This document shows, one piece after another, positions 32,072 through 33,975 of a stretch of 34,088 nucleotides of DNA (its first letter is position 1; every line of letters starts with the position of its first letter). The notes below the pieces were generated by a model. It made no database searches. It saw nothing but the letters and a program-made list of their open reading frames with translations, and was not told the origin of the DNA. The position numbers and the translations under genes were made by a program. Source of the DNA: Chlamydiota bacterium (lineage in GTDB: Bacteria > Chlamydiota > Chlamydiia > Chlamydiales > SM23-39); contig JBEHXF010000018.1 in assembly GCA_048498835.1 (NCBI GenBank), forward strand, positions 1 through 34,088, in the 5' to 3' direction.

Positions 32072-33457
32072 ATGCGAGCTAAACTCACTTTTTTTCCTCT
32101 TGCCCTCCTGATGATTTCAGCGATCGACAGCAATCGGAATCTCCCAGCTGTAGCGATCTTTGGCAGTCCTTTGATTTTTTACTTTCTGTTTGCAGCTGTC
32201 TTTTTCTTGTTTCCCACTGCCCTTGCCTCAGCAGAACTCTCATCGAGTCATCCGGATAAAGAGGGGATTTTCTACTGGGTTCGCCACGCTTTTGGTGAAA
32301 AATGGGGGATGGTGGCGATTTGGCTCCAGTGGGTCAATACAGTAGTTTGGTTCCCAACTATTCTCTCGTTCATCGCAGGCGCTTTAGCGTTTCTATTCGA
32401 TCCGGGCTTGATCAATGATAAAATCTACATGCTCTTCTCAATCGCAATTATTTTCTGGGCTCTCACTTTGTTGAATTTACGCGGATTACATGTTTCGGCT
32501 CGGGCGAATAATCTCTTCGCATTGATTGGAACGCTCTTGCCCATGTGCTTTTTGATTTTACTCGGAGCGGTTTGGCTCCATCGGGGAGAGCCGCTCCAGA
32601 TTTCTTTCTCTCCCTCTCAGATTTTGCCTGAAATCGCCAAACTCGATTCATGGGTTGCCTTGGTCGCTGTCATTGGGTCGTTTCTCGGAATGGAGCTCGC
32701 AGGCGTACACATCGCCGATGTCCAGCGCCCCCAACGGACCTATCCCTTAGCTCTCGGCGTTTCTAGTTTGATTATTTTAGCGACGATGCTCTTTGGAGCT
32801 TTGACGATTGCTTCTGTCTTGCCGCAGGAAAAAATCAATCTCGCGGGCGGGATCATGCAAGTCTTTGATGAATTTTTCCGTGTTCTCGGCTTCTCTTATC
32901 TCGTTCCTGTTGCAACCTTTGCCATCGTGTTGGGAAGCGTCGGCGGCTTGATCAATTGGATGATCTCGCCATCGAAAGGGCTCCTCTTTGCCGCGCGCCA
33001 CGGCTTTTTACCCCCTCTCTTCACCAAGCTCAATCGTCGAGGTGTTGCTTCTCGGGTCTTAATTGTCCAAGCGCTCATCGTCACAGCGCTCTGCTTTCTT
33101 CTTCTCTACGTCCCATCCGTCAACGGCTTTTACTGGTTTTTATCAGCGCTCAGCACAGGTCTTTACATGCTGATGTATCTATTGATGTTTGCGTCTTTGA
33201 TCCGCCTCCGCAAGCAGGTGCCGGCGGCAACGCTGGAAAAGCGTTTTGTCATACCTGGTGGAAAAGTGGGTCTTTGGGGTGTCTGTCTGTTGGGAATGAT
33301 CGGCTCGTTTCTCACGTTCGCATTGGGCTTTGTGCCACCCGAAAATGTGAACGTCGGCTCTCATCTTCAATACACGCTGATGATTGGAGGGGGAATGCTA
33401 CTCTTTATCCTCCCCGTCCTTTTGACCTTTGCTTATTCTGCAGCTAAAGAATCGTAA
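32072..33457 (+). CDS. APC superfamily amino acid permease (GadC-like)
   Basis: About 12 TM segments; SAEL, GIF.WV..AFG, FLGME, P.RTYP, GFLPP.F.KLN..G motifs. Confidence 0.93.
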   Translation: MRAKLTFFPLALLMISAIDSNRNLPAVAIFGSPLIFYFLFAAVFFLFPTALASAELSSSHPDKEGIFYWVRHAFGEKWGMVAIWLQWVNTVVWFPTILSFIAGALAFLFDPGLINDKIYMLFSIAIIFWALTLLNLRGLHVSARANNLFALIGTLLPMCFLILLGAVWLHRGEPLQISFSPSQILPEIAKLDSWVALVAVIGSFLGMELAGVHIADVQRPQRTYPLALGVSSLIILATMLFGALTIASVLPQEKINLAGGIMQVFDEFFRVLGFSYLVPVATFAIVLGSVGGLINWMISPSKGLLFAARHGFLPPLFTKLNRRGVASRVLIVQALIVTALCFLLLYVPSVNGFYWFLSALSTGLYMLMYLLMFASLIRLRKQVPAATLEKRFVIPGGKVGLWGVCLLGMIGSFLTFALGFVPPENVNVGSHLQYTLMIGGGMLLFILPVLLTFAYSAAKES

Positions 33458-33975
33458 TTCCTCACATTTGGGGGAGGGAGATTGTATAGTTGGCGCCCCC
33501 GTATCTCCATTTTTTTCTTAGTCTTCTTTTTTACTGACTGTGATTCTCTATGATAGAATCTACAAGCTTTGCGAGCAAGGCATGGATCCTTTGAATAATA
33601 AGATGGGCAAGGAGAAGACTTATATTGCTTTGAACCGGCATCGTAATATCCAGCTTTTAAATTACCGATGATCAGTTCATCAATATTGTGAGCATTTTTA
33701 CATGCCTTTCCTTCTTTACAATCCTTCAAATTACAAAGTTGAGTCCAAACTTCAATTTTTTGATGAGGCTTGTTGATACCGCCAAAATCACCTGTTTTCT
33801 TGGAAGGAAGCGGCTGATTTAGGTGAGAAAGAGAAATCGTATGAACCTGGGCTGTTTCTTTGGCCACCGCTCGTAACTGGTGTTCTTGCTGAACTTCAAA
33901 AAATAAGAGAGCGAGATCTGCGTGATCCACGCCGTGCAGTCCGTTATCCCTTAAATAAGTAGGTTTTATAGGCAT
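33433..33975 (-). CDS. Tandem CCCH zinc-finger protein (tristetraprolin/ZFP36-like)
   Basis: AGGA RBS. C81-x4-C-x5-C-x3-H96 and C123-x8-C-x5-C-x3-H142 with lead-ins WTQL and YKSSP, followed by KKKTKKK. Confidence 0.75.
   Translation of the reverse strand: MPIKPTYLRDNGLHGVDHADLALLFFEVQQEHQLRAVAKETAQVHTISLSHLNQPLPSKKTGDFGGINKPHQKIEVWTQLCNLKDCKEGKACKNAHNIDELIIGNLKAGYYDAGSKQYKSSPCPSYYSKDPCLARKACRFYHRESQSVKKKTKKKMEIRGRQLYNLPPPNVRNYDSLAAE

Follow-up and report, generated by a model that had tools for sequence, protein, structure and literature searches.

A 34,088-nt contig of a Chlamydiota bacterium (assembly GCA_048498835.1, contig JBEHXF010000018.1; this whole stretch is called the window below) encodes a 180-aa protein, P0001, that carries two tandem CCCH zinc fingers (open reading frame, ORF, at 33433..33975, minus strand). 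By the evidence of independent sequence profiles, P0001 is a CCCH protein of the TIS11/TTP-like (tristetraprolin-like) tandem type, as an earlier, sequence-only reading of this DNA had proposed and as chlamydial profiles, PDB matches and Foldseek matches now support. What that reading had missed is the place of P0001 in a recurring chlamydial gene set: ORFs with at least two complete CCCH motifs occur in 15 other Chlamydiota genomes (among 34 tabulated frames outside the genome under study, G000). This gene set is a stronger discovery than P0001, which is among its most eroded members. According to a 2016 review (PMC5031192), prokaryotic proteins with more than one CCCH finger were unknown at that time, and no published description of bacterial CCCH proteins was found in a literature judged mainly on abstracts, with subscription journals mostly outside it and with automatic database labels that may exist; PMC4029402 deals with proteins of algae.

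The CCCH motif, defined here as C-x(4-10)-C-x(4-6)-C-x3-H, occurs twice in P0001. Finger 1 (33688..33735; this and the following elements all lie on the minus strand) reads C81-x4-C86-x5-C92-x3-H96, is modeled with a pLDDT of about 90 and, together with its AH..DEL tail, scores 29.3 bits on a profile of viral fingers versus 17-19 on the chlamydial sets. Finger 2 (33550..33609), likewise recognized by its pattern, reads C123-x8-C132-x5-C138-x3-H142 and has a pLDDT of about 80. The 26-aa linker between them (33610..33687) starts with the tail NIDELIIG, of the AH...EL type, and ends with a YKSSP lead-in, and a basic tract, KKKTKKK, follows the fingers (aa 149-155, 33511..33531). Residue counts bear out the earlier description of the two fingers, the canonical spacing of finger 2, the shortened finger 1, the long linker (26 versus 18 aa) and the basic tract. 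All six cysteines of the protein are finger ligands, and all eight zinc-ligand residues are present. None of 200,000 shuffles produced a loose tandem pattern, and among the 10,964 six-frame ORFs in this genome the pattern picked out P0001 alone. The two predicted fingers very probably bind zinc, with each C3H motif expected to hold one ion and to fold as a TIS11-like finger.

The profiles that detect P0001 were built without sequences from this genome. A profile of 21 viral CCCH fingers ranked it first among the 10,964 genome frames (E 2.8e-8), and finger profiles from a chlamydial family, family A, and from chlamydial TTP-like proteins matched it at E 2.1e-6 and E 0.009, respectively. Profile A1, assembled from 10 tandem CCCH domains of other chlamydial genomes, picks up P0001 at E 0.003, and HHalign of P0001 against A1 returned E 5.7e-5 with a probability of 66%. 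An earlier profile of 32 fingers had placed P0001 third (E 0.021). When the family-A profile was run against this genome, P0001 scored E 0.0038 and only five frames, all CCCH, were returned at E<1. The Pfam matches of P0001 are Torus (E 0.032), Pellino_RING (E 0.039), TYW2_N (E 0.26) and zf-CCCH_tandem (E 4.4). An AlphaFold2 model from a 16-row alignment has a pLDDT of 80-92 over the fingers and a pTM of 0.32, and its best Foldseek match in the PDB is the TIS11d-ARE complex 1RGO (E 0.011; ARE, AU-rich element); a single-sequence model was poor (pLDDT 63) and uninformative, and a PDB search with the P0001 sequence alone returned one weak row, 9Y10 (E 3.4). Searches of protein sets of 5.8 billion and 1.84 billion sequences returned only P0001 itself (the former also with a two-paralogue profile), and searches of plasmids, NCBIfam and viral contigs returned no homologue. 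A match of 18 aa in metagenome locus L135 was rejected as chance, lying inside an unrelated 491-aa ORF that lacks the CCCH pattern.

P0001 has a paralogue in the same genome, on contig C79 (locus L003, C79:142-656, minus strand), with 35% identity over residues 1-109 by tblastn (E 2e-7); its two frames were analyzed separately. Pairwise comparison shows the two proteins to be about 40% identical and to share an N-terminal motif, TYxRxxGLHGVD (aa 6-17 of P0001, 33925..33960), the segment AHNIxELIIG, in which the NIDELIIG tail of P0001 corresponds to NIxELIIG of the paralogue, and a collinear C-terminal motif, PPxx[VI]RxY (33454..33474, pairwise E 0.001), which is distinct from the NOT1-binding motif of TTP. 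The KKKTKKK tract is not conserved in this collinear paralogue, which leaves the nuclear role that had been suggested for P0001 unsupported. The paralogue keeps more stacking aromatics than P0001 (HY, DF), and its finger 1 scores 18.7-20.1 bits on PF00642 versus a cut-off of 20.5. The dN/dS ratio between P0001 and the first frame of the paralogue is about 0.23 (90 codons, with dS saturated and the value imprecise). Because the paralogue is collinear and this ratio is low, P0001 can be taken as a coding gene: it is a real, intact ORF under selection. An AGGA sequence resembling a Shine-Dalgarno site lies at 33985-33988, 9 nt ahead of its ATG, within an upstream region (33976..34088, to the window end) that is 82% AT and in which a promoter scan gave at best 9 of 12 matches. 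Codon use is atypical, with a GC3 of 0.33 versus 0.47 +/- 0.08, at the 9th percentile among 1,206 crude genes and the 94th among 1,202 shadow frames.

The assembly spans 1.97 Mb in 88 contigs (97% complete, 2.4% contaminated), and the contig of P0001, C18, belongs to this genome, since its YqeY has homologues of 69-74% identity in all five congeners, further C18 genes have homologues of up to 58%, and its tetranucleotide correlation of 0.958 lies within the range of 0.937-0.994 for the 37 contigs of at least 20 kb (sixth lowest). The window's final 98 nt (33991-34088) are identical to C79:42-139. Since 28 of the 176 contig ends in the assembly show a 98-nt overlap near the end of another contig, the match is most simply an assembly junction, and the idea that it marks a repeated promoter of a third gene copy was dropped for the same reason; C79:1-41 would come from a variant strain or, with lower probability, from a third copy. 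The simplest gene order is then a cold-shock gene, rhlE, the paralogue and P0001 on one strand, facing an amino-acid permease (32072..33457, plus strand) whose 3' end overlaps the P0001 ORF by 25 nt. In two congeners rhlE and yqeY share a contig, and no CCCH gene was found in the rhlE regions of these two (three stretches, 59 kb) and no match to P0001 or to the family profiles in any of the five congeners, which argues that P0001 and its paralogue are a lineage-specific insertion. The genome contains two further multi-finger CCCH-like genes, a 356-aa frame at C12:38243-39310 (plus) and a 265-aa frame at C21:7052-7846 (plus), which were found by the family-A profile, have no CCCH Pfam match and belong to another subfamily.

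Across the phylum, the CCCH genes are patchy and, in the searches run, were found only in Chlamydiota (the sensitive profile scans covered this phylum only), so that the family does not look like a housekeeping one, in keeping with the sequence-only reading. PF00642 was positive in 13 of 103 genomes of the chlamydial family at E<=0.01 (G000 through the paralogue; two look spurious) and in 15 of 400 scored genomes of the phylum at E<=0.001, versus 0 of 14 control genomes at E<=0.001 and one at E<=0.01 (E. coli, with one match over the cut-off). Profile A1 was positive in 23 of the 103 family genomes (in three of these the frame has internal stops), with P0001 among the matches, and profile A4, made without the TTP-like members, in 20 of the 400 phylum genomes. 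Searched against the PDB, A1 matched TIS11d, 9Y10 and TTP best, at about 1e-21, and with A4 the best matches were still TTP and TIS11d (1e-12 and 1e-11). When 185,579 prokaryote genomes were scanned for the exact pattern, nothing was returned beyond the three loci from which the query came (3 of 37 candidates), a scan too narrow to speak for absence from other phyla. PF00642 or profile matches in G006, G194, G079 and G054, and one each in G092 and G099, contained stops or were very short and were treated as noise. The 3-kb loci of 12 of the 15 genomes include a flanking ORF with a homologue in G000 (there is none for G001, G002 and G297). One ORF, in G287 (L028:821-1384, plus), has five CPSF30-like fingers, lies near a contig start with neighbors that lack G000 homologues, and is probably eukaryotic contamination of that bin.

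Several members are much closer to the eukaryotic proteins than P0001 is. Textbook TTP-type tandem domains are carried by G074, G080a and G308, and the protein of G074 (L006:1291-1890, minus) has x8,5,3 spacing twice, an 18-aa linker, all four stacking aromatics, a PF00642 score of 64 bits, a Ser/Pro-rich N-terminus and, after the fingers, the sequence PLPIFKEL, which resembles the NOT1-binding RRLPIFNRIS; among these bacterial proteins it is the strongest candidate for a true TTP mimic. Of the 39 frames examined, 2 contain the core LP[IV]F. Family A (G017, G018, G020, G049, G073, G084, G092, G096 and others) has a helical N-terminal lead, a 20-aa linker, an HxGD tail and the long finger first. 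Its profile detects P0001 and its members also include short x4-x5 fingers, but there the short finger is second rather than first, and P0001 has neither the 20-aa linker nor the HxGD tail. In four genera (L010, L012, L023, L065) family-A genes adjoin obgE and/or one and the same membrane-protein gene, shared neighbors that suggest long vertical inheritance. Gly replaces the finger-1 His in members from G036, G088 and G028. In the chlamydial set at large, the dN/dS ratio of the G001/G002 pair is 0.20, and two or three CCCH genes stand side by side on G080:C2 (L007/L020), G297:C1 (L076), G049:C21 (L065) and G092:C13 (L051); in G080 and G297 these arrays lie far inside long contigs (beyond 250 kb and 1.88 Mb). 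Single fingers occur in other contexts: at the end of frames of 1,046-1,114 aa (L027 in G373, L031 and L034 in G231, with a fragment, L029, in G200), which we take to be helicase-like with Upf1/senataxin-type motifs, and in proteins of G043 (L011:841-1917, minus) and G039 (L014:1273-2208, plus) that share a C-terminal domain resembling a degenerate RRM. The G043 gene adjoins a homologue of the G000 gene that lies beside sctV.

The comparison with TTP and TIS11 (1RGO, 1M9O and the related POS-1, 6NZL) shows both how P0001 resembles these proteins and how far it has departed from them. The likeness consists of the two CCCH fingers, the YK before finger 2, the AH...EL tail after finger 1, the spacing of finger 2, and the best PDB profile and fold matches. 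Both fingers of the eukaryotic proteins have x8,5,3 spacing, whereas finger 1 of P0001 is x4,5,3; the linker of the 1RGO chain is 18 residues long, as is typical of TTP/TIS11, versus 26 in P0001; and the (R/K)YKTEL lead-ins of 1RGO and 1M9O are replaced by EVWTQL and QYKSSP, with only the T-x-L of finger 1 and the YK of finger 2 kept. At the base-stacking positions, which we take to be those of the Y/F residues on the 1RGO chain, finger 1 has E and N and finger 2 has A and F (F140), so that one of four aromatics survives in place of two per finger; the sequence-only reading had correctly seen that some were missing but understated a loss of three in four. According to PMC1635273, each CX8CX5CX3H finger of TIS11d reads UAUU through contacts of its main chain and through the side chains of two aromatic residues. 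With the short finger 1, the long linker and the single aromatic, canonical ARE binding by P0001 is not supported. A CNOT1-binding C-terminal motif, RRLPIFNRISVS, is described in many, but not all, TTP-family members (PMC11939966), and PMC12350847 reports that the isolated finger domain of TTP drives no deadenylation. Since P0001 has no LP[IV]F, in contrast to the RRLPIF-type NOT1 motif of TTP/TIS11, and fingers alone are insufficient in TTP, decay activity is unlikely unless the tails carry another interface. Judged on these sequence features, P0001, which is encoded by a bacterium, is not to be counted as a TTP-family member.

The CCCH proteins of large DNA viruses, among them iridovirus tandem zinc-finger (TZF) proteins and a Marseillevirus "zinc finger protein", offer a second comparison; iridoviruses and nidoviruses are described as encoding TZF proteins (PMC5031192). 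Finger 1 of P0001 with its tail scores best on the viral-finger profile; unlike it, the fingers of the C79 paralogue score higher on the chlamydial TTP-like fingers (32-33 bits) than on the viral profile (21-25 bits). The best viral Foldseek matches of P0001 are ORF_096L of scale drop disease virus (E 5.5e-4) and Marseillevirus proteins, and its Atlas neighbors are giant-virus and eukaryote CCCH clusters, some bearing PF19242, at 0.80-0.88 (0.85-0.86 for the viral leads), values below 0.9 that serve as leads only. The nucleocytoplasmic large DNA virus family Zn_finger_prot (PF19242) was not matched at E<=1 anywhere in the genome, P0001 included, and viral contig searches found no locus close to P0001. 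Unkempt (5ELK/5ELH) and plant TZF-type fingers (PF25512) resemble P0001 in their variable spacing and longer linkers and gave weak matches for the family and the paralogue, but P0001 has only two fingers, and these scores are far below those of TIS11d.

In a tree of 43 rows and 94 columns (from which the second frame of the paralogue, three single-finger proteins, G401 and G099 were omitted), P0001 and its paralogue group together with support of 99/93. The pair falls outside family A (branch 97/91), among viral and TTP-like rows whose branching order the tree does not resolve, and monophyly of all chlamydial rows was not rejected (AU test, p-AU 0.26). Both analyses include only one row that is neither chlamydial nor viral, so no donor can be named, and the viral finger set is biased, having been chosen by TTP-like patterns. 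A eukaryotic or giant-virus source for the P0001 domain is likely. The patchy distribution, the frequent arrays and the absence from all five congeners form a birth-and-death pattern, like that of the eukaryote-like F-box and BTB families of environmental chlamydiae, which PMC4209131 describes as patchy, duplicating and equipped with functional type III secretion system (T3SS) signals. The likeness extends to a eukaryotic domain in a T3SS-bearing chlamydia with tandem duplication and loss; the F-box/BTB effectors carry ubiquitin-system domains, whereas P0001 carries a putative RNA-binding one and its secretion is suggested by analogy. Chlamydiae are residents of eukaryotic cells, as PMC5451489 describes them, and G000, which also encodes the chlamydial histone-like Hc1, encodes a non-flagellar T3SS, as judged from SctV, SctN and SctJ families over cut-off (TIGR01399 925 bits, TIGR02546 645 bits, PF01514 79 bits); the OmcB family (PF03504) had no match in the chlamydial scan or in the controls. 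Over the first 25 residues, the share of S/T/P/N/Q is 0.37 in 30 proteins of the CCCH family versus 0.27 in 1,062 G000 genes, in a crude test with roughly chosen starts and non-independent kin, from which the G000 proteins and four others were omitted. By analogy, export of P0001 to the host is somewhat probable, and no Sec signal is visible in it by eye.

The explanation that we favor, tentatively and with considerable doubt, is that P0001 is a fast-evolving, functional finger pair of eukaryotic or giant-virus origin that is exported, recognizes RNA with a changed specificity and acts by competing, without triggering decay. The TIS11-type domain would have reached an environmental chlamydia from the eukaryote that hosted it or from a giant virus infecting the same host, and tandem duplication would have followed. 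The protein would leave through the T3SS into the host cell, as lifestyle and family traits suggest, where the finger pair and basic tail may bind single-stranded host or viral RNA with a specificity weaker than, or different from, the UAUU code. RNA binding of this weak or non-ARE kind is fairly probable. The last steps are the least certain: lacking the NOT1 motif, P0001 would not recruit CCR4-NOT but might occupy the sites or partners of host CCCH regulators, and the stability or translation of selected mRNAs might shift as a result.

Several results weigh against this explanation. PF00642 (zf-CCCH), the check that the sequence-only reading had proposed, gives no match to P0001 at E<=10. 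The alignment behind the AlphaFold2 model included TTP-like rows, so the fold match is not independent, and a VIA-align comparison of the model is weak (Z 3.1, rmsd 7.3, 65 residues aligned). The N-terminus of P0001 has an S/T/P/N/Q share of 0.16, at the 11th percentile of the genome; it is unlike a typical secretion signal. Stacking aromatics are present in 26 and 47 of 57 other chlamydial fingers at the two positions, versus the one in four of P0001. The C79 paralogue is, as assembled, broken by a frameshift between its fingers, near C79:355-380, and the 13-nt gap between the rhlE stop and the paralogue ATG fits co-transcription with bacterial RNA genes.

The same observations can be read in other ways. 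P0001 might be exported without binding RNA, its fingers forming a zinc-stabilized scaffold for host proteins, as a mimic or decoy. This would explain why three of four stacking aromatics were lost while the ligands and the N- and C-terminal motifs were retained, but finger 2 keeps its YK lead-in, the Y at Cys+3 and the F at Cys3+2, the protein is net positive (29 K+R versus 18 D+E) and the paralogue has more aromatics, and a pure scaffold is rather unlikely. A role within the bacterial cell, where P0001 would chaperone or regulate RNA alongside the cold-shock protein and RhlE, a DEAD-box helicase, is quite unlikely as well: it draws on the position of P0001 on the csp-rhlE strand, on the short gap just mentioned and on an N-terminus without effector-like composition, but the rhlE regions of the two congeners lack a CCCH gene. 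Since other chlamydial CCCH genes adjoin unrelated genes (obgE, ABC transporters, ychF), there is no conserved partnership of CCCH, csp and rhlE genes.

P0001 could also be a decaying relic of gene transfer, functionless and drifting since the duplication, as the frameshifted neighbor, the absence from congeners, the atypical codon use and the eroded RNA contacts might indicate. The 180-codon frame with its ribosome-binding-like site is nevertheless intact, and ligands and three non-ligand motifs have been conserved between paralogues that are only about 40% identical and saturated at synonymous sites, which makes decay an improbable account. That P0001 is a true tristetraprolin mimic, binding UUAUUUAUU and targeting ARE mRNAs of the host, perhaps inside the nucleus, is very improbable. 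Among solved structures, those of TIS11d and TTP come nearest to the family, and a basic tract is present, but that tract is unconserved, P0001 differs from TTP in spacing, linker, lead-ins, aromatics and NOT1 motif, and the proteins of G074, G080 and G308 fit far better. Contamination of the bin by eukaryotic or viral DNA, or a chance pattern, is barely credible, for although neither large protein set holds a homologue and the G287 match does resemble contamination, C18 carries genes with homologues in all five congeners, the tetranucleotide profile is in range, the gene has no intron and a bacterial ribosome-binding-like site, and shuffling never reproduced the pattern.

Elsewhere, the gene content of the window looks like that of a variable region. 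It includes three Glyco_transf_90 genes (3242-4444, 15178-16335, 22763-23821), a kumamolisin-type protease (5375-7465), a bicupin (11673-12698), a sulfotransferase (18667-19551) and, at 29546-30786, a stand-alone LigD phosphoesterase domain and DUF892. Three ORFs of 302, 891 and 91 aa at 25303-29415 (minus) have no Pfam or NCBIfam match; the 891- and 91-aa ORFs have Ser/Pro-rich N-termini and are possibly further secreted proteins.

The chlamydial gene set extends a hallmark module of eukaryotic mRNA control to bacteria, in G000 and 15 other Chlamydiota genomes. The own function of P0001, among the most eroded members, is the least predictable, while the near-canonical members make the question of RNA binding directly testable in vitro. 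Secretion, if it occurs, would make these proteins bacterial effectors that read the mRNA of the host through a host-type RNA-binding domain. A broader proposal, which we consider unlikely as it stands, is that chlamydiae repeatedly captured TIS11-type fingers from protist hosts and giant viruses as injected RNA-binding effectors, with full-toolkit members triggering decay, eroded ones competing, and targets that perhaps extend to the mRNAs of giant viruses infecting the same host. PMC9457554 describes a symbiont-mediated block of viral factory maturation, and the targeting of giant-virus mRNA as its mechanism is a speculation. If repeated capture were true, these bacteria would possess a control layer of their own over the fate of eukaryotic mRNA.

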